DNA of 47,430 bases, taken from the UHGV virus genome UHGV-0334146; one strand, 5' to 3'. The DNA is from a virus. Both the position numbers and the translations under genes were made by a program. Positions 17,471 through 39,614 of this stretch are shown one piece after another. Numbering within the stretch: position 1 is the first letter of the stretch; every line of letters starts with the position of its first letter. The notes below the pieces were generated by a model, which was not told the origin of the DNA, searched no databases, and worked only from the letters and a program-made list of their open reading frames with translations.

Positions 17471-18070
17471 ATGGCTACCTACATCAAGTTTCTGGCAGGG
17501 GACTACGGGAAAGAAGAATATATTTACATTAAAAATAAAAACAAGTTGCGTTGCTCTTCAAAAATGTTTGGAGCAAAGGAACTTTTTCTTTCCAGTATTG
17601 CCTCTTGCGAAGTAGCCAATGAAGAATCGGTCAAAAAGCTCGGCGGAACTTTGGGAGGCGCACTTGTCGGCGGCGTCTTGCTTGGAGGCATCGGAGCGGT
17701 TGCGGGTGCGGTAGCTGGAGGCAAGACGACTGAGTCTACCGTCATTATTGAGTTCAAAAATGGAAATAAGGCATTGGCAAAGGTGAATAGCCCCATGATG
17801 GAGGTTATCCGCGCACACCTTTTTGATGACCAATTGGCCCAAGAGCGTGGAGAACCAAACCCGCTTATACATCATGAACGTTCTCAGACGCCCCCTAAAA
17901 AAATTGCCCTTATCATTGGAGTGCTGATAACAGTAGTGCTAGCCGTATTGTGGCTGAGTTGTGCCCTCCAAACGCCGCCCAATACGAATGGGGCCTTGTT
18001 ATGGGGAATCCTCACTATCCTTTCCGGACTGTATTCTTGGAAAATCTATAAGAAAATATATAAATCTTAA
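17471..18070 (+). CDS. Glycine-zipper membrane protein (moron)
   Basis: 199 aa. GxxxG repeats (LGGTLGGALVGGVLLGGIGAVAGAVAGG) plus two C-terminal TM helices. About 40% GC against a genome GC of roughly 60%. TATAAT at 17451-17456 and RBS AAGGGGGA lie upstream. Confidence 0.55.
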   Translation: MATYIKFLAGDYGKEEYIYIKNKNKLRCSSKMFGAKELFLSSIASCEVANEESVKKLGGTLGGALVGGVLLGGIGAVAGAVAGGKTTESTVIIEFKNGNKALAKVNSPMMEVIRAHLFDDQLAQERGEPNPLIHHERSQTPPKKIALIIGVLITVVLAVLWLSCALQTPPNTNGALLWGILTILSGLYSWKIYKKIYKS

Positions 18071-18105
18071 TATATTAACTTGAATCCGAACAGGGAGAGA
18101 GGACC

Positions 18106-19176
18106 ATGGATTTTTCGGAAAGAATTGCTGAATTGTCGAAAAAGGTAAAGAATCTGGGAGATAGCCTCAAGACCGAAGAGGCCACGAAAAACGCCTTGGT
18201 GATGCCTTTTATCGCGGCCCTGGGATACGACGTTTTCAACCCTGCGGAAGTCGTGCCCGAATTTTCAGCCCCCATCGGCGAATATAAGGACGCCCGCGTG
18301 GACTATGCGATTCTTGTGGACGGCAAGCCTATCCTTCTTCTAGAGTGCAAGGCTTTGGGCACGTCTCTCGACATGAAGCACTGCAACCAGCTACAGCTTT
18401 ACTTCCACGGAACGGAAGCCCCTATTGCCATTCTGACAGACGGCAACCGCTACCGGTTCTATTCCGATCTTGAAACTGCCAACAAAATGGACAGCAAGCC
18501 CTATATGGAGTTCGTCCTTGACGATATGGACGAAATGCTGCTCCCGGAACTGCGCAAACTGGCAAAGGGCAAGTTTGATCGGGATGCCTGCATGAGCGCG
18601 GCAAACGAACTCAAGTACAACCGAGAGTTCAAACGCCTCATGTCCGAACAAATGGAAAAGCCGCACGAAGATTTCGCGCGCTTTTTCATCGGCCAGACGT
18701 ATGATGGACGTATCACGCAAAACGTTCTGGATCGCTTCACTCCAATCCTTACCGCTGCGCTTGACCAGTTCATCAACGACCGCATCAACGACCGCTTGAA
18801 AAATGCCATGACGCAGCAGAAACCGGAAATTGTAGAGATAGAGTCCGAAGATACCCCACAAGGAAAAGAGCAGGATTCGCGTATAGTCACCACCGAGGAA
18901 GAAAAAGAGGCGTATTACCTTGTCAAATCGCTTCTGATGGGCACCGTTGATCCGGGGCGCGTAGCCATGCGGGACAGTATCAGCTACTGCTCCATCCTTC
19001 TTGACGACAACAGGCTCAAGCCTCTGTGCCGCCTGTATTTCAACGGAAAACAGTGGAGGGTCGGACTGTTTGATGGGGAGAATAAGGACGCAAAGGAAGA
19101 CATCGAAAAACTGGAAGATATTATCCCCTTTGCGGATCGAATCCGGGCTACGGCCTTGAAATACGATAACAAGTAA
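18106..19176 (+). CDS. PD-(D/E)xK nuclease-fold protein with an HSDR_N (type I R-subunit N-terminal)-like domain
   Basis: 356 aa. EEATKNALVMPFIAALGYDVF…VDYAILVDGKPILLLECKALG parallels the EcoKI HsdR …FADYVLFVGLKPIAVVEAKR motif (D…E-x-K). Low GC. RBS GGGAGAGAGGACC precedes the ATG. Confidence 0.6.
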   Translation: MDFSERIAELSKKVKNLGDSLKTEEATKNALVMPFIAALGYDVFNPAEVVPEFSAPIGEYKDARVDYAILVDGKPILLLECKALGTSLDMKHCNQLQLYFHGTEAPIAILTDGNRYRFYSDLETANKMDSKPYMEFVLDDMDEMLLPELRKLAKGKFDRDACMSAANELKYNREFKRLMSEQMEKPHEDFARFFIGQTYDGRITQNVLDRFTPILTAALDQFINDRINDRLKNAMTQQKPEIVEIESEDTPQGKEQDSRIVTTEEEKEAYYLVKSLLMGTVDPGRVAMRDSISYCSILLDDNRLKPLCRLYFNGKQWRVGLFDGENKDAKEDIEKLEDIIPFADRIRATALKYDNK

Positions 19177-19527
19177 AACTTTCCAACGTGGCGTTGCCCG
19201 CCAATGATGAAGAACATCCAGATGCGGGCAATGCCACTGCTTTTCTCTTTACATTTTCCGAGTTTTGTGCTGTCTTTTGTGTACGGGCTTCAGAACCCCG
19301 TAGGCGGACAAACGCCACCCGATAGCATGGCGCTTTTTTATGCCCTTTTTCCAAAGTCAAGAGTTTTTCTTGGCTGTCTTTTGGGCTATTATTGCATCCA
19401 ATGTTTGCCGGGTGTGGCGGATATGTCCAAGCGAAAGCTAAAGGCCGCCAGCGGTTCCTACGCCGTTCTGAACACCCGGCGCTTTCTATTTCAGAGAGTG
19501 TAATTCAGACAATGTAGGAGTTGCATT

Positions 19528-20448
19528 ATGGAAATGGCCCTAATCTTCAACGAATTTATCTTCACGCCTGTCACTCACCAAAACAGTCTCTGGATTCGTT
19601 CTTCTGAATTGGCTAAAGCACTTGGCTATTCCGACGACCGCAAGGTTGGTGTGCTCTATGCCCGACATAAGGATGAATTCTCCAATAATATGAGCGTGGT
19701 TCTCAATTTGAGTACCACGGATGTACCCGCTATGAATCGCATCTTTTCCCTTCGCGGTTGCCATTTGGTTGCGATGCTAGCGCGTACTCCTATTGCCAAG
19801 GCCTTCCGCAAGTGGGTGCTAGACGTCATCGAGCAGTACGGCGACAGGGTGCCAGTTGAAAGCCCTGTGACGCTCAACGATGAGCTGATCAGTGCGGCGG
19901 AACGTGCCGAACTCAAGCTCATCGTAGACGCCAAGCTCTCAACATACCCCGCCGCCGTGCAGGGCAAGGCCCGCGCCGAGATATGGGCGAAGCACAACCG
20001 CCATTTCCGCATCGCGGAATACAGCCAGCTCCCGGCCCGGCTTATGCCCGAGGCCCGCGAGTTTCTGCTTTCCGTCCGCGTCCGCGCCATCAATGCCATA
20101 CCCACGGCGGAATCCGCGATCCCGTACCCGTCGCTTCCCGTCGCATCGTCACTATACCGCGACCGCGTGAGGGAGCTTGAACGGCTCGAACAGGATTGGA
20201 TGGAACTTGCAGTCCTGATCCGCGACCGCGCTTATGGACTGGAACGAGACTTCCGCCGAGTGACGCAAGGAACGTATCCCGAACTGCTCCGGCATGTATC
20301 GCCATCCGGGAAGACGCCCGTTGACGCGCTTATCCAGCTCATGACAGCCCCAACCTACACCGCCCGGCAAAACCTCGAATCCGCGCTTGATGATATGCGT
20401 CTTGCCATCCGTGCCGCGAAGACCGCGAACAGGTTGATGCTAGGGTAA
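19528..20448 (+). CDS. BRO-N domain protein (antirepressor-like)
   Basis: 306 aa. The N-terminal FIFTPVTHQNSLWIRSSELAKALGYSD… is a Bro-N signature. RBS GTAGGAG. Confidence 0.65.
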   Translation: MEMALIFNEFIFTPVTHQNSLWIRSSELAKALGYSDDRKVGVLYARHKDEFSNNMSVVLNLSTTDVPAMNRIFSLRGCHLVAMLARTPIAKAFRKWVLDVIEQYGDRVPVESPVTLNDELISAAERAELKLIVDAKLSTYPAAVQGKARAEIWAKHNRHFRIAEYSQLPARLMPEAREFLLSVRVRAINAIPTAESAIPYPSLPVASSLYRDRVRELERLEQDWMELAVLIRDRAYGLERDFRRVTQGTYPELLRHVSPSGKTPVDALIQLMTAPTYTARQNLESALDDMRLAIRAAKTANRLMLG

Positions 20449-20503
20449 TCCTTGGCAAGCCTACATGAATCATATAAGACTTTACCAACGGAGGGATTCC
20501 CCC

Positions 20504-20815
20504 ATGCTGCTGTTCGATGATGGGAAAAAGCTTGAAAAGGCCGTCGGCGAGGAAGCCGCAAAAGCCATCGTGGAAGTACTGGAACGCTTTGACGAGAGTC
20601 AAAGGAACGCCAGTGCTACCAAGGGAGATCTGCGCGAAACTGAACTGCGGTTGCAAAAAGAAATTCGGGAATTGGACCTGAAAGTGCAAGCGGAGATCGA
20701 AAAAATTCGTGCTGAAGTGTTGAAGGTCAAGTATGATCTTTTGAAATGGCAAATTGCCATAGGGTTTGCCCTTGTCGCAGTTATGGCCAAGGGCTTCGGC
20801 TGGCTCGGATTCTAA
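20504..20815 (+). CDS. XhlA-like coiled-coil membrane protein
   Basis: Trimmed to M14 (RBS GGAGGGA). Coiled-coil N-terminus and a C-terminal TM (WQIAIGFALVAVMAKGFGWLGF). Confidence 0.45.
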   Translation: MLLFDDGKKLEKAVGEEAAKAIVEVLERFDESQRNASATKGDLRETELRLQKEIRELDLKVQAEIEKIRAEVLKVKYDLLKWQIAIGFALVAVMAKGFGWLGF

Positions 20816-20838
20816 TAAAGAAAGAATATCGTAGAAAA

Positions 20839-20872
20839 GGGGTGGCTTTAAGAGCCGCCCCTTTTTGTTTTT
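20839..20872 (+). terminator. Strong intrinsic terminator
   Basis: GGGGTGGC-tttaaga-GCCGCCCC followed by TTTTTGTTTTT, with AAAA upstream. Confidence 0.65.
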
Positions 20873-20915
20873 CTGCCTCTCCCTTCTGTTACTGATGAGT
20901 TAAAAAAGATAAAAC

Positions 20916-20961
20916 TTTTTTTGAAAAAATTGTTTATTTTTTCAAAAAATGGTGCTATTGT
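20916..20961 (+). promoter_or_regulatory. Promoter with a 13-bp inverted-repeat operator upstream of the three-gene moron
   Basis: TTTTTTTGAAAAAA-ttgttta-TTTTTTCAAAAAA (two mutually inverted AT palindromes), then TGcTATTGT as a -10-like element, then RBS AAAGGAGAAG and the ATG at 20994. Confidence 0.45.
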
Positions 20962-20993
20962 ATTTTCAACGAAAGGGTAAAGGAGAAGCCACC

Positions 20994-21497
20994 ATGAAGC
21001 TGTACCACGGAAGCATGATTGAACATTTGGCTATCTCTAACTCAGGAACAGGGTTAGGGTATAACTTCGGAGCGATGTTCTTTGCCCGCACGTATGGAAC
21101 AGCAAAGGGATACGGAGATTACGTCTACCAGTGCGAAGTAGACGTCAAGGATATCTTTTTTACGGAAGACCTTCCGTATCTTGATGACGGTGCTGCGGGA
21201 ACGGCTCTACGTGAAATTATGGAAGAGCGCGGGATAGACGAAATCCATTTTGATCTATGCTGGCAAGCCGTGGTTTCGGAAGAACTGGACTTTCAAGAAC
21301 GAGGAGACTGGGCAGACCTTCTCGGAATGGACGAGGACGACGCGGGTTGGGAGGCTCAGGCCATGCGTATCGCCTTTGCCCGTAAGTTGGGCTTCAAGGC
21401 TGTTGGAATGGATGACGAATGTGGAAGTATCGCGGTTCTTCCCGAGTTCATAAAGCTGGAAGCGTCAACGGAGGCAGACGATGAAGAGGAAGACTAA
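20994..21497 (+). CDS. Small acidic protein; possible minimal PARP-like (H-Y-E class) ADP-ribosyltransferase
   Basis: 167 aa. The N-terminal MKLYHGS…NFGAMFFARTYGTAKGY…YVYQCEVD resembles the PARP catalytic H-G-S, Y-x-F-G-x-G-x-Y-F-A and Y…E elements. The C-terminal 50 aa are highly acidic (…EASTEADDEEED). About 45% GC. The fold assignment is an inference. Confidence 0.45.
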   Translation: MKLYHGSMIEHLAISNSGTGLGYNFGAMFFARTYGTAKGYGDYVYQCEVDVKDIFFTEDLPYLDDGAAGTALREIMEERGIDEIHFDLCWQAVVSEELDFQERGDWADLLGMDEDDAGWEAQAMRIAFARKLGFKAVGMDDECGSIAVLPEFIKLEASTEADDEEED

Positions 21498-22872
21498 GAT
21501 AGACATCGACGATCTTATCGATTTCAGTTCAAAGCTGGTGAACTCGAATTCCAGCATCGGTATTCGCTTGTCGTCGGGTGCCGCGCTCTCCCTTCCGTAC
21601 CTGTCCACGAGGACATGTCTTGCGGCAGGGATTTCTATGCCGCTGGATACGGCAAACGGGGCCAAGGATGTGGGAAAGGTAAGTGCTCTATACAAGACAC
21701 TCGAAGAGGGGGAGGAAGGAGAGAAAGCAGATACAGAGGCGGCATTGAAGAAAATCCGTAAAACAGGATTTGCCAGAAAAACAGAGTCTGTCGACAGACG
21801 GATTCGTCAACTGCTCATCCCTAAAGACGTACCCTCTGGGTATGTCTCTTTGTCTCCCCTCCCCTCCATTGGACTTTCCGTTTTGCTGTTAGGAGCCGTT
21901 ACAAGGCATAATCAAGATGTCTTTTCAAAAAAGAAGGAAGGTATCAAAATTCGACGGGCACATCTCGCTTTGGGCGGGGCAAACCCTCAGAATCTAGGAT
22001 ACGCTGCGTCCAAAAAGGCGATACAATATCCTGTTTTTCTTTCTACACCCAAATCCGTGCGCGGAAATGCCAGCCGTCAGGCGTCAGGAAAGGGAACTTA
22101 CCTGATCCTTTCCAATCTCTTTGTGCAAACGGCAAACATCTTGACGAATTATACTATGCTCAACGGCGCGCCCCTCTTTGCAGCATGGGGGATGGGACAT
22201 GCACTGGAGCGCGAGATGCATGGTCCCAAAGTTACCGGAGTATGCCTTGTTGTGCATAGCATCGAACCCCTTGGGGAGCATGAAACCGCTATTTTCGAGC
22301 CTAGCCAAAGATTAGGAGCGGCTTTTACTTTTGAAAAATCCCGTAACGGGAGCGACTACGCAAAAGGCTCCACACATCTCTCTTTGCAGCCCGGTGCAAC
22401 GGGGCATATACGGGTGAGCCTTATCTTTGAACTGTCGGAAGCCCTGCATTCCGTACCGAACGCCGTGGATCTTTTCTTGAACTTCGGAAAGTTCTCCGGT
22501 GGGCTGATCACTTCATACGACGCCCCGGCTTTGCATGATGACCGCTCTACGCTTCTAGAGTGCATTCCCGCCGGGAAAGTTGTTTTGGATCGGCGCGACG
22601 TTATGAGCCCTGGAAACCCCATTGAACAGCTTGTAACCGCGATAGGAACGTACAGCGGAAAATGGCTGTCCGCAACGAATATCGGTTTTTCAGCAATCAC
22701 AGACTTTCAAGTTCGCGGAGGGGCACGGAACGGGTGCCTCCATGCTTTTGCGGAGCCGCTGATCGGCATTACAGAATACGTCTCTACTGAAAAGAGGATA
22801 CACGGGTATTTCTGGCGCAGCCAGTGGGAAGAAGATAGCTTTTTGATGAGGGGAGATTCAACAAATGAATGA
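21481..22872 (+). CDS. Hypothetical 463-aa protein with no recognisable domain
   Basis: It overlaps the preceding gene by 17 nt and the following gene by 8 nt, which indicates translational coupling. Low GC. No Walker, HTH or nuclease motifs were recognised. Confidence 0.55.
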   Translation: MKRKTKIDIDDLIDFSSKLVNSNSSIGIRLSSGAALSLPYLSTRTCLAAGISMPLDTANGAKDVGKVSALYKTLEEGEEGEKADTEAALKKIRKTGFARKTESVDRRIRQLLIPKDVPSGYVSLSPLPSIGLSVLLLGAVTRHNQDVFSKKKEGIKIRRAHLALGGANPQNLGYAASKKAIQYPVFLSTPKSVRGNASRQASGKGTYLILSNLFVQTANILTNYTMLNGAPLFAAWGMGHALEREMHGPKVTGVCLVVHSIEPLGEHETAIFEPSQRLGAAFTFEKSRNGSDYAKGSTHLSLQPGATGHIRVSLIFELSEALHSVPNAVDLFLNFGKFSGGLITSYDAPALHDDRSTLLECIPAGKVVLDRRDVMSPGNPIEQLVTAIGTYSGKWLSATNIGFSAITDFQVRGGARNGCLHAFAEPLIGITEYVSTEKRIHGYFWRSQWEEDSFLMRGDSTNE

Positions 22873-23086
22873 TGCACAAGAAAAAAAGCAGGGGGGACGC
22901 CGTAAAGGATCTGGACGTAAAAAAAAGGTTGAAAATCGTGCAACAGTAAAGACTGTATCTATGCCGGATCATGTCTGGGAACGGCTGAACGATGTATGTA
23001 CGGATAGGGGTATCCTACGCTCACAGGTAGTACGGGAAGCAGTCGAGATGTGGCTGGACGCAAATATACAGCAGCTTGGAAAATGA
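22865..23086 (+). CDS. Ribbon-helix-helix (CopG / ParD-like) DNA-binding protein
   Basis: 73 aa. A basic N-terminus is followed by …TVKTVSMPDHVWERLNDVCTDRGILRSQVVREAVEMWL, a classic RHH β-α-α pattern. Confidence 0.6.
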   Translation: MNDAQEKKQGGRRKGSGRKKKVENRATVKTVSMPDHVWERLNDVCTDRGILRSQVVREAVEMWLDANIQQLGK

Positions 23087-26548: not shown

Positions 26549-27331
26549 CTAGTCTCCAAATTCAGGAATAACGGCCCGGTACGTGCATTGGCACCCCGGA
26601 AGCTCACCGCAAAGCACTTTGCGCTTCACGTCAGAGTCGTAAAGACCTTCCGTGATGACGAACTTTTTCCCATTCATGAGCTGGTGGGTATGGCGGCTCG
26701 TTTTCTTTCCCGGCACATGTACCCAGACGCCTTCGGTGATGCCGAGTTCCTTGTCCTGTACCCGCTTGATGGCCTCGGTCGCCTTGTTGGATTGATCGCG
26801 AGCAATGAATTCGGCCCGGCGCCGGGTGATCTCGTACCGCTTGTGCAGTTCGTCGGCGAGGAACTCCACGTCCCTGCCCATGCTGGCGGAACGCTGTACT
26901 AGCCCCGTTACTTCCGTGAAATAGTGCTGCGGAATGGATTTGATGAGATTGACATTTTCCTCGAAGAGGGCCCGCGCCACGTCGCTCATGGCCCTGCTTC
27001 CCTCCATCCTCACCGTGAAGCCCGCATCTTTGAGGGCCTGCCTCATCCCGGCTTCCGTGCGCCGCCTCGTACTGCCCACGAACTCCCGTGCAAAACTCTC
27101 CGCGCTTTCCCTCCACCGCTTCGTCCAGTACCGGAACAGGCTCTTGAGGCGGTCTTGTAGGTCACTCGCCGGGGACGCATCCTGTGCTATGCGGGTTTCC
27201 TGCTTCCTGTACTCGGCGCGCAGCCACCACACGACGGAACGCTGCATCTCGTCGAGAAGCGACACCAGCCGCTTCCGGTATTTCGCCCGGATGCCCGCGT
27301 TGGGCTTGATGGCGCGGATGACCTTAGCCAT
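26549..27331 (-). CDS. Minor head morphogenesis protein (Mu F / SPP1 gp7-like)
   Basis: 260 aa directly after the portal gene. C-terminal …GVWVHVPGKKTSRHTHQLMNGKKF… resembles the Phage_Mu_F motif. Confidence 0.55.
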   Translation of the reverse strand: MAKVIRAIKPNAGIRAKYRKRLVSLLDEMQRSVVWWLRAEYRKQETRIAQDASPASDLQDRLKSLFRYWTKRWRESAESFAREFVGSTRRRTEAGMRQALKDAGFTVRMEGSRAMSDVARALFEENVNLIKSIPQHYFTEVTGLVQRSASMGRDVEFLADELHKRYEITRRRAEFIARDQSNKATEAIKRVQDKELGITEGVWVHVPGKKTSRHTHQLMNGKKFVITEGLYDSDVKRKVLCGELPGCQCTYRAVIPEFGD

Positions 27332-28868
27332 AGACGGCCCCTGCCTTGTCCACGTCGTCGATGTCGGGCATCAAGCCCCCTTCCCCGGCTTCCGGCAGGG
27401 CGTCGGGCATTCCGTTGCCCTGCGGCACTTCCGCCGGGTCTATGTCGGAGAAGCCGCTGTCCGGGTCACTGGCAAGGGACTGCCGGGCCTCTTCCTGAGA
27501 GATGATGTCCCGATCCATGTAGACGGCGATGGTGTCGGCCTTGGTCTTCTGGAGCGTCGCAAGGGCTGCCCTGTCCTCTTCGCCGAGGGGCGCGAAGTCG
27601 AAAGTCACGGAAGGGTCGATGGTTCCGCGCAGGTAGAGCTGAATACAGTCGAGCGCCTTCTTGATGCCGTCGCGCAGGACTTTCTCCTGCTGGCTCCTGA
27701 CATGGTCGTAGTAGTTGCGGATGTCCGATTCGCCCGTGGCATTGAACCCTGACGGGCTGATGCCAAGCAGCTTGACCGCCGGAGTGCGGTTCAGGGCGGC
27801 GAGAATTTCAAGGGACTGGCGCACGATGTCGGTCACGCCGGAAAGCGGGGTTTCCAGCTTGACCACGTCTTCTGATTCTTTGTCGACGGCAAGCACGCCG
27901 TCATTGGTCATGGACTGGATCATGTACCGGATGCGTGCATCGATCTGTGCCGTGCCCCCCGACGCGTACAGGATGTCTTCCATCTTCGTCTTGAAGACGG
28001 TCAGCGAAAACTTGGTCAGCAGCCGGGCTTCGGCGGCGCGGCATTCCTGAAAATGCAGGACGTAATCCCAGAGGATCTGAGCTTGTGGGATGCCCAAAAA
28101 ATTGTAGGCTGGACGGAGCAGCACCGGGCATTCGTTCGCAACCAATCGGATGAGGCGCGAGGCGTGCACCCGCTGCCCGAGCACCCACCACCAGCGCGGG
28201 CGGAAGTAGTCCGGCTCAAGCGGCGAAAGGCTGTTGTAGTCTCCGGGGAAGACGTTCACGGGGTCGATGACGACGAAGCGCAGCACGCCGCCGGGCCTGA
28301 GTTCGGCGGAATACGGGCTGACGTTCAGCGGGCGTTCCAGCTCTTCCCCGACTGCTCCGGTGTCGATGAAAAGGAAGGCCCCGCCCTCGTACCCCACAAG
28401 CTCGGTCGCCTCATGGAAAAGGCGTTGCAGTGCGAACCTCTTGCACGCCTGCGCAAGGTCGGTGAGCAATGACTCGTCGCCGCCCTCCCCTTCGCGCTTG
28501 AACTCAATCCATGCTCGGGTCATGTCGTCGGATACCGTCTCGACGCAGGCACGGATCAATCCATTCTGGGCAAGGTTCTGGAGGACGCCGTAGCCCATGA
28601 ATTGCGGCGCAATCCCGACCCCAAGCTCAAGCGAGTGCTGGAGCAGGGAATAGACGCCGGAATCCGCAAGCCGCGCATCCATCGCAAGCTGCACCTCTTC
28701 GGGCGCGCCGAGCGTCTTCGCAGGACCGTACAACCGGCTGATGTCGTCGGGCGTAGGTGGCAAAGACTGAGCAAGGCCGCCGCGCACGTCCGGGGAGAGA
28801 TTCAGACGGCGCGACGGTTGCACTTGAGGTATGGAGGTGGCGTGTCGATAAGTGCGCTTCTTGCTCAT
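27324..28868 (-). CDS. Portal protein
   Basis: 514 aa. It is the first gene of the head operon, with the late motif 34 nt upstream. Acidic C-terminus. Confidence 0.65.
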   Translation of the reverse strand: MSKKRTYRHATSIPQVQPSRRLNLSPDVRGGLAQSLPPTPDDISRLYGPAKTLGAPEEVQLAMDARLADSGVYSLLQHSLELGVGIAPQFMGYGVLQNLAQNGLIRACVETVSDDMTRAWIEFKREGEGGDESLLTDLAQACKRFALQRLFHEATELVGYEGGAFLFIDTGAVGEELERPLNVSPYSAELRPGGVLRFVVIDPVNVFPGDYNSLSPLEPDYFRPRWWWVLGQRVHASRLIRLVANECPVLLRPAYNFLGIPQAQILWDYVLHFQECRAAEARLLTKFSLTVFKTKMEDILYASGGTAQIDARIRYMIQSMTNDGVLAVDKESEDVVKLETPLSGVTDIVRQSLEILAALNRTPAVKLLGISPSGFNATGESDIRNYYDHVRSQQEKVLRDGIKKALDCIQLYLRGTIDPSVTFDFAPLGEEDRAALATLQKTKADTIAVYMDRDIISQEEARQSLASDPDSGFSDIDPAEVPQGNGMPDALPEAGEGGLMPDIDDVDKAGAVYG

Positions 28869-28901
28869 GTGCCCATAATGCTACGAGCCAAAAAGAAAAC
28901 A

Positions 28902-28919
28902 CACCGTGAACAAGGTTCG
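28902..28919 (-). promoter_or_regulatory. Late-operon conserved motif, copy 3 (CACCGTGAACAAGGTTCG)
   Basis: Exact 18-mer 34 nt upstream of the portal ATG, in the divergent region shared with the plus-strand endA-like gene. Confidence 0.5.
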
Positions 28920-29004
28920 GGGGGCTTGGCTGTGGGACACCTTTCATATTGTATCAATATAGATTAATCTATATATACATGGATACCTTTAGGGAGGTAT
29001 CCGC

Positions 29005-29751
29005 ATGTACAAAAGCATCATGGTGTTTCTGCTGGCCGCGCTGGTTATGACGTCCGAGGCGCAGGCCGCGGGCAACGAATGGAACGATTCGTTCAGCAAG
29101 GCCAAGAAGACGCTGGAACGGCAGGTCTATTATGACCATCGGATCACGCTCTACTGCGGGGCGGCGTTCGACGAGAAGAAGAACGTCACCCTGCCGGAGG
29201 GTTTTACTGCCGCGAAGCACGAGAAGCGGGCCGGGAAGGTGGAATGGGAACACGTGGTCCCCGCCGAGAACTTCGGGCAGGCTTTTCCGGAGTGGCGCGA
29301 GGGGGACGCACAGTGCGTGGACGCGAAGGGGAAGGCATTCAAGGGCCGCAAGTGCGCGGAAAAGGTGAACCGGGAATACCGCCTCATGCAAAGCGACATG
29401 TACAACCTCTATCCGGCCATCGGTGCGGTCAACGCCCTGCGCCAGAATTACAACTTCCAGATGCTGCCCGGCGAGGAGCCGGATTTCGGAAGCTGCGGGA
29501 TGAAGATCGCCGACCGCAGGGCCGAGCCGCCCGTCCGGGCGCGGGGACAAATTGCCCGGACCTACAAGTATATGGCCGACGCCTACGCCCCGCGCTACCG
29601 CATGAGCCGCCAGCAGACGCAGCTCATGGACGCATGGGACAAGATGTATCCGGTTGATGCGTGGGAATGCACGCGGGCCAGACGTATTGAAAGACTACAA
29701 GGTAACGAGAACCCTTTTGTGAAGGAAAGATGTCAAGAAGCAGAACTCTAA
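29005..29751 (+). CDS. endA: Secreted endonuclease I (EndA / Dns family periplasmic or extracellular DNase)
   Basis: 248 aa. Signal peptide MYKSIMVFLLAALVMTSEAQA|AG. Strong colinear similarity to E. coli EndA: KVEWEHVVPAENFG, SDMYNLYPAIGAVNALRQNYNF, AEPPVRARGQIARTYKYM, SRQQTQLMDAWDKMYPVDAWECTRARRIERLQGNENPFVKERC. It has its own AT-rich promoter (TTGTAT-17-TATATA) and RBS AGGGAGGT. Confidence 0.85.
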   Translation: MYKSIMVFLLAALVMTSEAQAAGNEWNDSFSKAKKTLERQVYYDHRITLYCGAAFDEKKNVTLPEGFTAAKHEKRAGKVEWEHVVPAENFGQAFPEWREGDAQCVDAKGKAFKGRKCAEKVNREYRLMQSDMYNLYPAIGAVNALRQNYNFQMLPGEEPDFGSCGMKIADRRAEPPVRARGQIARTYKYMADAYAPRYRMSRQQTQLMDAWDKMYPVDAWECTRARRIERLQGNENPFVKERCQEAEL

Positions 29752-29765
29752 CTCTTTACATTCAT

Positions 29766-31229
29766 TTATATTCTCCTTCCCATACGTGGCTGATTGAGGA
29801 TGGCGGGGTTGATGCACATGGGCCGCTTGGTATCGAAATCACGCAGCGCCTGTGTTGTGGCGTCCACTTGGTCGTCGTGGGGCGCACCGGGGAACTGTGT
29901 CAGTTCCGCGACGTACTCCCGCGCCCACGGGCAATGCTCAGGGTGCGGGAGCAGGACGTTCCCGGCCTCGAAGAACGTGGTCACGGCATGGGCCCGGGCC
30001 GTCTTGCTGCCGTCCGGCTCCACGGGGATGATACCGGGCACAGCATGTTTCAGCGCGTCGATAACCGCCGGGCCGTTGGCCTTATCCTCCACCAGCTTAC
30101 GGGCTGCGCCGGGCCATTTAGCGGCGAGCGCCCGGAACGCGGCGACCGTATCCGTAAATCCCATGCGCCGCCGGACCTGATCGAGGAGGTAGCGGTCGGC
30201 CCCCTTGCGGCCCCACACCTGCCCCACAACAAAGTCGGTATCGTCGCCGTCTTTGAACGTCATATCCCACGAGATAAGGAGCTGGTCGAACTGCTCCGGA
30301 AGGTCTTTGGGGAGCCAGAACCGCAGCCACTCGGATTTGAAGATGGCGCCGCCGTCTGGCGTAGGCCGCTGCTGGTACAGGGCTTCCCAGTCGCGTGTGC
30401 CGAGGGCTTTCTTAATGGCAAGAAGCTGCTCCAACGGGTAGCGTTCAGGGTGTAAGGCTTCACCTGCCCTACGGTGCAGCTCGTCTTCCGTTGCGATGGC
30501 GGGGAAGTTCACTACGCGCCAGTGGTCGCCCTCCCCCCGTGCGGCGGCCTCAAGCAGCCTCCCTGAGAGGTCAGCCATGTGCCAGCGAGTGTTGATGATG
30601 AGCACCCCTCCACCGGGCGCGAGGCGCGTGTACAGCGTGGACGTGTACCAGTCCCAGACGTTCTGGCGGATGGTCGGGGAATCGGCGGACGCCCGGTCCT
30701 TGAACGGGTCGTCGACGATGACGATATGCCCGCCCATGCCCGTGATGCCGCCGCCCACGCCAGCGGAACGGTAGCATCCAGCGTGCCCCACTACCTCGAA
30801 TATATCCGAGTTGCGGAGGTAAGAGCCGTTCCCTACGGTGCGGATGTTCTTGCCATAGAGGGCTGTTCCCGGGAAGAGTTCCCGGTATTCCGGGCTGTCG
30901 ATGACGCGCTGGACGTCGCGGTTCATGCGCGAGGACAGGTCGGCGGCGTAGCTCGTGGAAATAACGGATAGATCGGGATAGCGGCCCAAGGCGTAAGCCG
31001 GGAAGCGGCGGGAGGCGAGCTCGCTTTTCCCGTGGCGCGGGGGCATAGTCAGCATGAGGCGCGGGGAACGCCCGGCTACGACATCTGCAAGGAAAGCGTC
31101 AAGCTCGGAACAGATTTCCTCATGTACCCATCCCATGCGGTAGCTGGGCATGGTGTAGCGCACGAAGGCCGCGAGACAGCTACGGGCCAGTGCCTTCCGG
31201 ATATCGGAAAGGATGGCGGGGCTACTCAT
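29766..31229 (-). CDS. terL: Terminase large subunit
   Basis: 487 aa. ATPase and nuclease regions are present (…LTMPPRHGKSE…, …VIVDDPFKD…). Its start overlaps the terS stop. Confidence 0.85.
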   Translation of the reverse strand: MSSPAILSDIRKALARSCLAAFVRYTMPSYRMGWVHEEICSELDAFLADVVAGRSPRLMLTMPPRHGKSELASRRFPAYALGRYPDLSVISTSYAADLSSRMNRDVQRVIDSPEYRELFPGTALYGKNIRTVGNGSYLRNSDIFEVVGHAGCYRSAGVGGGITGMGGHIVIVDDPFKDRASADSPTIRQNVWDWYTSTLYTRLAPGGGVLIINTRWHMADLSGRLLEAAARGEGDHWRVVNFPAIATEDELHRRAGEALHPERYPLEQLLAIKKALGTRDWEALYQQRPTPDGGAIFKSEWLRFWLPKDLPEQFDQLLISWDMTFKDGDDTDFVVGQVWGRKGADRYLLDQVRRRMGFTDTVAAFRALAAKWPGAARKLVEDKANGPAVIDALKHAVPGIIPVEPDGSKTARAHAVTTFFEAGNVLLPHPEHCPWAREYVAELTQFPGAPHDDQVDATTQALRDFDTKRPMCINPAILNQPRMGRRI

Positions 31230-38418: not shown

Positions 38419-39165
38419 ATGGGTAAAACAGACTGGATCATTAAATTTTTTGAGTCCAAAATTGGGCACGGGAAGGAATTCGCCACACGAGTTGATATGG
38501 CGAGGTTTTTAGGGTTGTCCCCAACGCAACAGACAAAATTGTTCAATTTTTTGAAAGGTTCAGACACGCAATATAAGGCCGTCCTAGATTGGTTTGAACG
38601 ACTTGGGGGCAAGTTCGAATCGGAGACTACACCTTCTAAAAACGTCTGCTTCATCGATGCGCGTGTGGCCCCCGCAGGCAATGCTCTCCCCCCTCCCCCG
38701 GATGAAGACTACCTCGCCGTTCCCCTTGTGGAAGAAGTTGGCGCGGGGCCCGGTATCATTCCACAAAATGAACTCATCTCGTGGTTCCTCGTCTGGCGTC
38801 ACCAGCGGGCCATTCAACACAAGCGTGACCTCATTGCCGTCATGCTGGGCAAACACTCAACGTCTATGGTTCCCACGCTCAAGCCACAAGACATTGTGCT
38901 TGTAGACCGACAAGATAAAGACGTGATGAACTTCAAAGGTAGGATCATGCTTGTCCTCGATCCTTTCGACGGCAGCGGAAAAATCAAGCGTGTGGCGGCA
39001 GAAAACCAGCCGAAAAAGCGCGACTATCGCATCACCTACTATTCGGATAACGCCGCCGAGAATCCCCCCGAGGTCTACAGCCTTATGGAAGACTTCGAAG
39101 GGGACTGGAACAAGTCCATCGTCGGGCGGGTTGTATGGGCGTGGAGTGACGTGAGCTGCAAATAA
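38419..39165 (+). CDS. CI-like repressor with a C-terminal S24 (LexA-type) autopeptidase domain
   Basis: 248 aa. Ala-Gly site (VAPAGNAL), Ser motif STSMVPTLKPQDIVLVD and Lys (GKIKRV). Confidence 0.75.
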   Translation: MGKTDWIIKFFESKIGHGKEFATRVDMARFLGLSPTQQTKLFNFLKGSDTQYKAVLDWFERLGGKFESETTPSKNVCFIDARVAPAGNALPPPPDEDYLAVPLVEEVGAGPGIIPQNELISWFLVWRHQRAIQHKRDLIAVMLGKHSTSMVPTLKPQDIVLVDRQDKDVMNFKGRIMLVLDPFDGSGKIKRVAAENQPKKRDYRITYYSDNAAENPPEVYSLMEDFEGDWNKSIVGRVVWAWSDVSCK

Positions 39166-39179
39166 CCGTGGAGAGCCCC

Positions 39180-39614
39180 ATGTATAAAATCTATCAGGCT
39201 GGCCCCCTTTTCTCAGATGCGGAACAGTCGTGGCACGGTAAACTTTCCGAGCGACTGCGTGCAGCAGGGCACTCCGTGGTCTGGCCGGGAGACTTGCTCA
39301 CCTCAGACCGAATCAAAGCCGCTGGCCCGGGGGCAATCTCCCTTATCTTTGATACGTGTCGAAACGCCATTGATTGCAGTACCTGTGTTGTCGCCCTGCT
39401 TGATGGCACTCAGGTTGATGACGGCACGGCTTGGGAAATCGGGTACGCCTATGCCAAAGGGCTTCCTATCTTTGGTATCCGCACCGACTTTCGACAAGGC
39501 GGGGATACGCCGTTTAACCACATGAACAGTATGATCGAGGGTTGCCTGTACGGTTTTGCCGCAGATATCGACGGGCTTTTGCTGATGATGTGTGCGGCCT
39601 CATGTAGCAAATGA
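39180..39614 (+). CDS. Nucleoside 2-deoxyribosyltransferase-family protein (Nuc_deoxyrib_tr / DNPH1-like)
   Basis: MYKIYQAGPLFS…, IDCSTCVVALLDG, DDGTAWEIGYAYAKGLPIFG and D.R are hallmark motifs. RBS GGAGAG. Its start is 15 nt after the CI stop, so it is co-transcribed. Confidence 0.7.
   Translation: MYKIYQAGPLFSDAEQSWHGKLSERLRAAGHSVVWPGDLLTSDRIKAAGPGAISLIFDTCRNAIDCSTCVVALLDGTQVDDGTAWEIGYAYAKGLPIFGIRTDFRQGGDTPFNHMNSMIEGCLYGFAADIDGLLLMMCAASCSK

Follow-up and report, generated by a model that had tools for sequence, protein, structure and literature searches.

We investigated a nuclease gene, here termed endA, in the virus genome UHGV-0334146, a temperate phage of Bilophila wadsworthia whose entire 47,430-nucleotide sequence is referred to below as the window. 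The span 28870-29751 comprises a 136-bp intergenic region and a single open reading frame (ORF), 29005..29751, which lies antisense within the head-morphogenesis operon, with the portal gene on one side and the large terminase (TerL) gene on the other. Its opposite-strand position in the portal-terminase interval, first proposed in the original prediction from the letters alone, was confirmed by the Pfam assignments of the two flanking genes. The protein has the generic RefSeq name 'endonuclease [Bilophila wadsworthia]'. The gene is most likely a host-derived cargo gene ('moron') of the phage, and we hold its identity as Endonuclease I, taken jointly with its moron status, with high confidence. 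The features of the locus are as follows.

29005..29751, plus strand: endA-like gene, encoding a 248-amino-acid (aa) Endonuclease I (PF04231) precursor identical to WP_302785192.1
29005..29067, plus strand: predicted Sec-type signal peptide, residues 1-21, with predicted cleavage between AQA and AG, from sequence features
28921..29785, no strand: cargo cassette of ~0.86 kb, aligned to the empty-site loci L045, L033, L035, L041 and L042; edges to about ±7 bp
28949..28977, plus strand: TTGTAT-17-TATATA, a weak candidate promoter (7/12 consensus positions) within AT-rich sequence
28957..28974, no strand: perfect 18-bp palindrome ATATAGATTAATCTATAT, spanning the promoter spacer and -10
28977..29008, plus strand: predicted 5'-leader hairpin, pairing the ribosome-binding site (RBS, 28992-28997) and AUG; -13.9 kcal/mol, z -3.4
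27324..28868, minus strand: portal gene, flanking the hot spot on the left; PF06381, E 1.5e-80
29766..31229, minus strand: TerL gene, right flank; PF03237 and PF17289 (Terminase_6N/6C)

The translated ORF matched the Pfam family Endonuclease_1 (PF04231) with an E-value of 1.5e-29 and 103.9 bits, over a curated cutoff of 25. In a phmmer search of the PDB, the only solved structures matched were Vibrio periplasmic or extracellular endonucleases I, namely Vvn (1OUO, E 4.5e-50, 43% identity), the V. cholerae enzyme (2G7E, E 1.2e-46) and the V. salmonicida enzyme (E ~1e-46). The alignment to Vvn was near-colinear over EndA residues 29-244, upholding the homology to EndA and Dns that had been called earlier. 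The protein shares family and predicted fold with Vvn, V. cholerae Dns and E. coli EndA (PF04231, His-Me finger group 9), with 41-43% identity and template-modelling (TM) scores of 0.87-0.91 (target-normalised) to the Vibrio endonucleases I, and has the same catalytic Glu-His pair, Asn and Arg, the same DNA-contacting Lys, an N-terminal export signal and a similar size. In contrast to these chromosomal enzymes it is phage-encoded, scores 198.4 bits against the NCBIfam equivalog model of E. coli EndA (PRK15137), under the cutoff of 372, and differs in a 13-residue insertion and in its cysteines. By its sequence, it is a member and homologue of the Endonuclease I family and no orthologue or equivalog of E. 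coli EndA.

Across an alignment of 38 homologues (65-95% identity), residues K34, E80-W81-E82-H83, R115 and N143 were invariant. An HMMER alignment placed K34, E82, H83, R115 and N143 opposite K28, E79, H80, R99 and N127 of Vvn, K34 being the equivalent of the DNA-contacting lysine K28. In Vvn, E79 is the metal ligand, H80 the general base, and R99 and N127 contact the scissile phosphate (PMC5758888, PMC3593177). The catalytic set is intact, and the sequence is that of a complete Endonuclease I (EndA/Vvn/Dns family) precursor. The 13-residue insertion, near W97-K113, is specific to this clade and absent from the Vibrio enzymes, and the conserved cysteines (C51, C104, C117, C164, C222 and C243) correspond to six of the eight in Vvn, those missing being the counterparts of the second Cys in 'CGC' and of the Cys in 'ETC', both of them Vvn motifs. 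An AlphaFold2 model had a mean predicted local distance difference test score (pLDDT) of 84.6 and a predicted TM score of 0.80. Its best Foldseek match was 1OUP_A, Vvn bound to DNA (E 1.6e-17, TM 0.87, root-mean-square deviation 2.0 Å), and the next match outside the family had an E-value of ~0.5; the predicted fold is of the Vvn type, a His-Me finger with a C-terminal helical domain behind it.

The Sec signal peptide of the original prediction was also recovered, using manual criteria (a basic start, a hydrophobic core and an A-x-A cleavage motif). By eye, the N-terminus reads MYK-SIMVFLLAALVM-TSEAQA before the predicted cleavage site and AGN after it: its start is basic, its hydrophobic core spans 12 residues, and positions -3 and -1 are both Ala. 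The same inspection found no Cys after the predicted cleavage site and no twin-Arg in the N-terminus. The sequence of this region is variable, with its hydrophobic character kept in all 38 homologues, and it falls outside the alignment to mature Vvn, which begins at residue 29. In the AlphaFold2 model, the N-terminal helix (residues 2-15) is detached, and residues 16-20 have pLDDT <50. By these features, EndA has the predicted N-terminal export signal characteristic of the Endonuclease I family.

Indexed gut-metagenome assemblies contain the exact protein in 57 blocks, and the order portal-endA-TerL was found in all six of the listed places that hold it. Alleles of 94% identity occupy the same site, and in B. 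wadsworthia ATCC 49260, where a portal-protein scan of reference genomes located the phage, the endA found there is a 97% allele. All contigs examined agree with this cultured strain, and a misassembly confined to one isolate, which had been raised as a caveat, is ruled out by the recurrence of the arrangement across many independent assemblies.

We identified relatives of the phage via the portal protein, a choice unbiased toward endA, and then scored the TerL-portal interval in each. Close relatives were defined by a portal identity of ~92% or more (n=30), and more distant relatives by one below ~90% (n=55). Among the close relatives, endA was intact in 18, reduced to a remnant in one (L032, EndA residues 15-105 only), and absent from an empty site in five, with other arrangements lacking endA in the remaining six. 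None of the 55 more distant relatives, from hosts including Desulfovibrio, Mailhella, Sutterella and Parasutterella, had endA at the TerL-portal site. Thus, the earlier suggestion to look for endA at this site in related phages finds it in the closest relatives only, and because its presence there is polymorphic, endA is moron-type cargo. The cassette substitutes for ~28 bp of the empty junction, and its right edge falls inside the last ~5 TerL codons, so that TerL ends in RMGRRI* in the window and in RIGYRFR* in the empty-site phages. In the latter, ~61 bp separate the end of TerL from the start of the portal gene, and the window shares with them the 52 bp that adjoin this start. The TerL-portal junction is a cargo hot spot, and endA, by its distribution, is a classic moron.

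Other cargo was found in the same hot spot. Two relatives (L037 3122-4054 and L038 3589-4515) carry ~310-aa Ant-like proteins that share their C-terminal half and have swapped N-terminal domains (ORF6N versus P22_AR_N), and a third (L021 1818-4053) encodes an antitoxin-like protein of the SocA/Panacea type and a partner of 137 aa. At the same site in a Bilophila metagenome-assembled genome (L097 5103-5729), we identified a 208-aa predicted lipoprotein with a signal ending in VGC, on endA's strand and with no Pfam match, a second exported protein in the hot spot. An IS200/605-type TnpA and a TnpB occupy the interval in L046.

We additionally noted variation in the terminase genes themselves. 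The TerL proteins of the close relatives L043, L046, L051 and L065 (e.g. L043 3707-4945) contain an intein-like insertion (CFAAGT...VLVHNC) within which a 213-aa HNH/zinc-finger-like ORF is nested. In L001 (6762-10824) and L018, endA and portal are identical to those of the window, but only TerL residues 168-487 adjoin endA, and a TerS-like gene lies ~2.5 kb further off with unrelated ORFs intervening; TerL may here be interrupted, or its N-terminus replaced. In L006 (8613-11171), the region beside the small terminase (TerS) gene is swapped for an epimerase/dehydratase, a TAGT (PF20691) protein and a ParB_N protein, which may constitute a DNA-modification module.

Pairwise ratios of nonsynonymous to synonymous divergence (dN/dS) between the window endA and ten other alleles were 0.076-0.095, each comparison involving 30-70 synonymous differences, similar to values of 0.04-0.09 for the flanking portal and TerL genes. 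Values of ~0.08-0.09 point to purifying selection maintaining endA. The same data bear on whether the gene is a functionless passenger or an assembly artefact. The remnant in L032 and the five empty sites would fit such a gene; the low dN/dS over so many synonymous changes, the invariant catalytic residues, and the identical arrangement in independent assemblies and a cultured strain effectively refute it, leaving this explanation scarcely credible, and a pseudogene was likewise rejected.

The synonymous divergence of endA (dS 0.22-0.67) exceeded that of its flanks in most comparisons. The differences of the window allele from all others cluster at 29300-29550, with 9-17 per 50 bp, while its 5' and 3' parts are near-identical to theirs, a pattern which indicates mosaic exchange by recombination among endA copies. 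We also identified an 84%-identical endA in a non-phage context (L129), beside genes for RecQ, major facilitator superfamily transporters and an amidohydrolase, whose neighbours are named 'uncultured Bilophila sp.'. The upstream region of this chromosomal copy shares with the cassette the ATTGTnT motif, the palindrome arms ATATAGAT and ATCTATAT, the RBS and the GGAGGTATCCGCATGTACAA start context. The cassette is thus probably a host-lineage gene captured together with its own control region. The guanine-plus-cytosine (GC) content of endA (0.60, against 0.62-0.64 in the flanking genes) is host-like, as the original prediction had it, and fits this origin; a recent low-GC import was rejected, given this value and the same leader in the chromosomal Bilophila homologue.

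Copies of endA were found in other elements. One copy, P0155, 85% identical to the window protein, belongs to an unrelated Mu-like Bilophila prophage (L167/L168 6296-7744). Its start lies 12 nt beyond an HTH_3 gene that holds the position of a repressor and diverges from the transposase operon. With 521 assembly blocks, P0155 is indexed far more often than the window allele with its 57. A 71%-identical endA lies in a predicted prophage, a few kb from the tape-measure gene. On a D. desulfuricans-type contig (L130 7001-8737), an endA homologue (71%) and a Bro-N gene stand directly upstream of a 5'-truncated comM, in which the Mg_chelatase match begins at residue 4 with profile position 32, and which suggests an element inserted into this competence-associated gene. 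Three EndA-clade paralogues (P0104, P0116 and P0119, 69-70% identity) were found on one 3.34-Mb Desulfovibrio falkowii contig.

Searches of reference sets recovered little. A DNA search of an isolated-phage collection with the 4-kb region returned distant terminase matches only and no related phage. A search of this collection with the EndA protein returned six records, four of them predicted Helicobacter prophages and the others an unannotated 2.7-kb fragment labelled 'Salmonella phage' and a scaffold of a Salmonella chromosome, and a fold search of BFVD with the EndA model returned giant-virus homologues only. Apart from the predicted Helicobacter prophages, neither the collection nor BFVD held a bacteriophage EndA homologue, and a 2017 census of His-Me finger nucleases lists no viral PF04231 members (PMC5714182 Table 1). 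Phage-borne copies of PF04231 are thus uncommon in reference sets.

Upstream of endA, the original prediction had placed a sigma-70-like promoter, and the hexamers TTGTAT (28949-28954) and TATATA (28972-28977) are indeed present with a spacer of 17 nt. Its strength was overstated, as 7 of 12 positions agree with the consensus and a consensus promoter scan of 28500-30200 returned no site. The RBS, GGGAGG, stands 7 nt ahead of the endA ATG. The ~65 bp upstream of the gene are almost invariant among alleles with a coding dS of 0.2-0.5, which argues for constraint or recent exchange. The palindrome ATATAGATTAATCTATAT occurs once in the window and had no match in any shuffle, and every occurrence across 170 loci lay ~35-50 bp upstream of an endA, the chromosomal L129 among them. 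We consider it a candidate operator for a dimeric regulator; a repeated operator set of the phage repressor was rejected, given its single occurrence in the window and its restriction to endA in the 170 loci.

The leader hairpin is tentative. Three other native-leader variants form equivalent predicted hairpins of -17.6, -17.3 and -18.7 kcal/mol with differing left arms. Among seven sequences of four types, 85% of cells pair and one compensatory GC-to-AU change was observed, a covariation no better than that of shuffles. The Mu-like prophage endA, fused behind another gene, is without the hairpin (-0.8 kcal/mol). On the portal side, the scan of 28500-30200 found no promoter-like site near the portal start, and the 52 bp there are shared with the empty-site phages; thus, the divergent 'portal late promoter' proposed earlier is unsupported. 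The portal gene is most simply read as co-transcribed with TerL, by a transcript running antisense through the cassette. The genes of endA and TerL are convergent, with the TerL stop (29766-29768) 14 nt past that of endA (29749-29751), and a terminator scan of 28500-30200 found no terminator-like site on either strand, leaving nothing to separate the two. A small-terminase-like gene is also a right-hand neighbour, and MuF-like and DUF2213 head genes lie further left.

Judging from this anatomy, endA would rely for its transcription on its own AT-rich upstream region and be read antisense to the late transcript that runs from TerL to portal. Being independent of late transcription and opposed to it, the gene could be made in a lysogen while the late operon is silent. 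Its opposite strand and near-invariant upstream region support lysogenic expression, as does, indirectly, the position of the Mu-like prophage copy behind a repressor-position gene, and we regard expression in the lysogen as moderately probable. The promoter palindrome, and a hairpin hiding the RBS and AUG, would probably hold this expression low or conditional.

The same arrangement bears on a helper role in the lytic cycle, whereby periplasmic EndA is freed at lysis and digests viscous host DNA, allowing virions to disperse. The gene does lie within the morphogenesis module, and S. pyogenes prophage deoxyribonucleases (DNases) are discussed as induction-linked (PMC3258162). However, endA is antisense to the late operon, making co-transcription impossible, and strong late transcription would collide with it, there being no terminator on either strand. 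In addition, the Mu-like copy occupies a lysogeny-expressed position, and the five close relatives without endA retain the same head genes. We therefore consider a lytic helper improbable.

In the lysogen, EndA would undergo Sec export and signal-peptide cleavage and then fold in the periplasm, as is the case for its family. By the same family reasoning, it would be a beta-beta-alpha-metal nuclease that requires Mg2+ and cuts without sequence specificity, active in the periplasm and perhaps also extracellularly, with H83 as general base, E82 and N143 as metal ligands, and R115 stabilising the scissile phosphate. Taken as a whole, the statement that endA encodes an exported, active, lysogeny-expressed and DNA-degrading conversion factor appears to us somewhat better than an even proposition.

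Close parallels exist for an exported nuclease of this type on a mobile element, which is an established concept. Endonuclease I nucleases reduce transformation (PMC5714182), and the Dns homologues IdeA and SxnA, borne by the integrative and conjugative elements (ICEs) VchInd5 and SXT of V. cholerae, abolish natural transformation (PMC7693049, PMC12378983). Window EndA resembles IdeA and SxnA in being an exported Dns-family nuclease on a mobile element, which in their case is conjugative and here is a phage. IdeA escapes the HapR/QstR repression of chromosomal dns, whereas the Bilophila cassette retains a chromosomal-type upstream region. In Campylobacter jejuni, the Dns (CJE0256) of the Mu-like prophage CJIE1 inhibits transformation (PMC12378983), and its gene is annotated 'endonuclease I precursor' (PMC4202330). 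The CJIE1 Dns and the Helicobacter 'Endonuclease I precursor' genes are prophage-encoded exported DNases like window EndA, and the H. ganmani copy lies likewise in a small opposite-strand island. They differ in being distant sequences (30-32% identity to window EndA for the Helicobacter predicted-prophage copies) from another host phylum and on other phage backbones, the window copy being in the head module. The Bilophila Mu-like prophage copy is a closer architectural parallel to CJIE1 than the window copy is. The S. pyogenes prophage DNases Spd1 and Sda1 are described as secreted beta-beta-alpha-metal nucleases and prophage cargo (PMC3258162). Unlike window EndA, they are of the Endonuclease_NS type (group 5, PMC5714182), are secreted from a Gram-positive cell and are documented to act against neutrophil traps.

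By analogy with IdeA, SxnA and CJIE1 Dns, the most likely selective benefit of endA would be the destruction of double-stranded DNA reaching the periplasm or cell surface. Transformation-type uptake would be blocked, resident prophages would thereby be shielded from recombinational curing, and extracellular DNA would also be degraded. Such an anti-uptake role is possible, and we put it forward tentatively. The roles listed in the original prediction, which ranged from degrading incoming, competing or biofilm DNA to aiding virion escape and recycling nucleotides at lysis, are reasonable possibilities.

A second possibility is that EndA degrades mainly extracellular DNA to the benefit of the host, through biofilm remodelling or dispersal, through cutting the DNA of neutrophil extracellular traps or mucus, or by supplying nucleotides, phosphate or nitrogen, with the phage gaining indirectly via a fitter lysogen. 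The Endonuclease I family is exported and nonspecific, and effects on biofilms are reported for V. cholerae Dns/Xds (PMC3212620) and for Bdellovibrio Endonuclease_1 proteins (PMC3593177), while Campylobacter extracellular DNases, including those of prophages, remove biofilm (PMC4372405). DNA can also support the growth of E. coli (PMC9273947), and endA, having kept its native host-type promoter, behaves like an extra host gene copy. Yet E. coli EndA and Vvn are periplasmic, and such a benefit does not account for the presence of endA, in B. wadsworthia, on two prophages of unrelated types and not on the chromosome. We find host benefit as the main function somewhat doubtful.

A third possibility is superinfection exclusion, in which periplasmic EndA attacks the DNA of rival phages or conjugative elements during its passage through the envelope. 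The nuclease is predicted to be periplasmic and nonspecific, its carriers are prophages that would profit from excluding rivals, and the hot-spot cargo of relatives includes conflict-type genes (the Ant-like proteins and the SocA/Panacea pair). Against this, the family literature examined documents no member that blocks phage infection, and a trans-envelope channel normally protects phage DNA during injection. We consider exclusion of this kind very improbable.

A broader proposal is that unrelated Bilophila prophages have repeatedly captured the host-lineage nuclease as an inter-element weapon, held under a two-layer switch of palindrome and hairpin. The captures that can be cited are those in the head-module hot spot and in the Mu-like repressor operon, along with the Desulfovibrio copies by a tape-measure gene and at a disrupted comM. 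Incoming DNA would be destroyed, preventing recombinational curing or the entry of rivals. We judge this unlikely; if true, exported EndA-type nucleases would be a common, regulated module for prophage maintenance or exclusion in gut sulfate- and sulfite-reducing bacteria.

Several points weigh against endA as an active, lysogeny-expressed conversion factor. The phage can dispense with it, as five of the 30 close relatives do and as the decayed copy in another suggests. The proposed promoter is weak, with the consensus scan silent, and the leader hairpin predicts poor translation unless relieved. The eight cysteines of the family, forming four disulfides, are thought to confine activity to the oxidising periplasm; with six of the eight Vvn cysteines and a sulfide-producing, strictly anaerobic host, disulfide-dependent activation may differ here. 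The anti-transformation benefit for Bilophila is drawn by analogy only. Finally, as the native chromosomal-type promoter is kept, the cassette may confer gene dosage rather than escape from host regulation, unlike IdeA.

Elsewhere in the window, the modules run from an integrase (1209-2237) through tail, low-GC cargo island and head to lysis, replication and immunity. The low-GC island (17471-23086, plus strand, GC 0.46-0.51) lies on the opposite strand at the boundary of the tail and head modules. Domains recognised in its proteins are HSDR_N (18106-19176), Bro-N (19528-20448) and, as a partial match in a 463-aa ORF (21481-22872), Cas_Csy2 (PF09614, E 1.9e-10); the island may serve defence or counter-defence. 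In the presumed immunity region, a 248-aa ORF with no Pfam match (38419-39165, plus strand) is followed directly by a gene of the nucleoside 2-deoxyribosyltransferase family (39168-39614, PF05014, E 9e-21), an unusual neighbour for such a region.

The setting of endA had been presented as unusual; it is less so than implied, EndA/Dns nucleases on mobile elements being documented (PMC7693049, PMC12378983, PMC4202330). The analysis adds polymorphism at a hot spot, evidence that the gene was taken from the host together with its control region, a parallel case of capture in a Mu-like prophage, and two candidate regulatory elements, an operator and a leader hairpin. These observations open no new theme; they extend to phages of the Desulfovibrionaceae a known one, that of the mobile Dns/EndA-type nucleases carried by conjugative elements of Vibrio and prophages of Campylobacter. 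To our knowledge, almost no phage biology has been described for B. wadsworthia, a bile-associated gut pathobiont. Human gut metagenomes commonly contain the phage and its nuclease, as reflected in the 57 blocks with the exact protein and the 521 with the Mu-like copy, and natural strains for comparison exist in which the same site holds endA, a remnant of it or neither. If EndA is active, lysogeny would alter how Bilophila handles foreign and extracellular DNA, with consequences for the uptake of genes, the stability of prophages, biofilm and perhaps the DNA traps of the human host.

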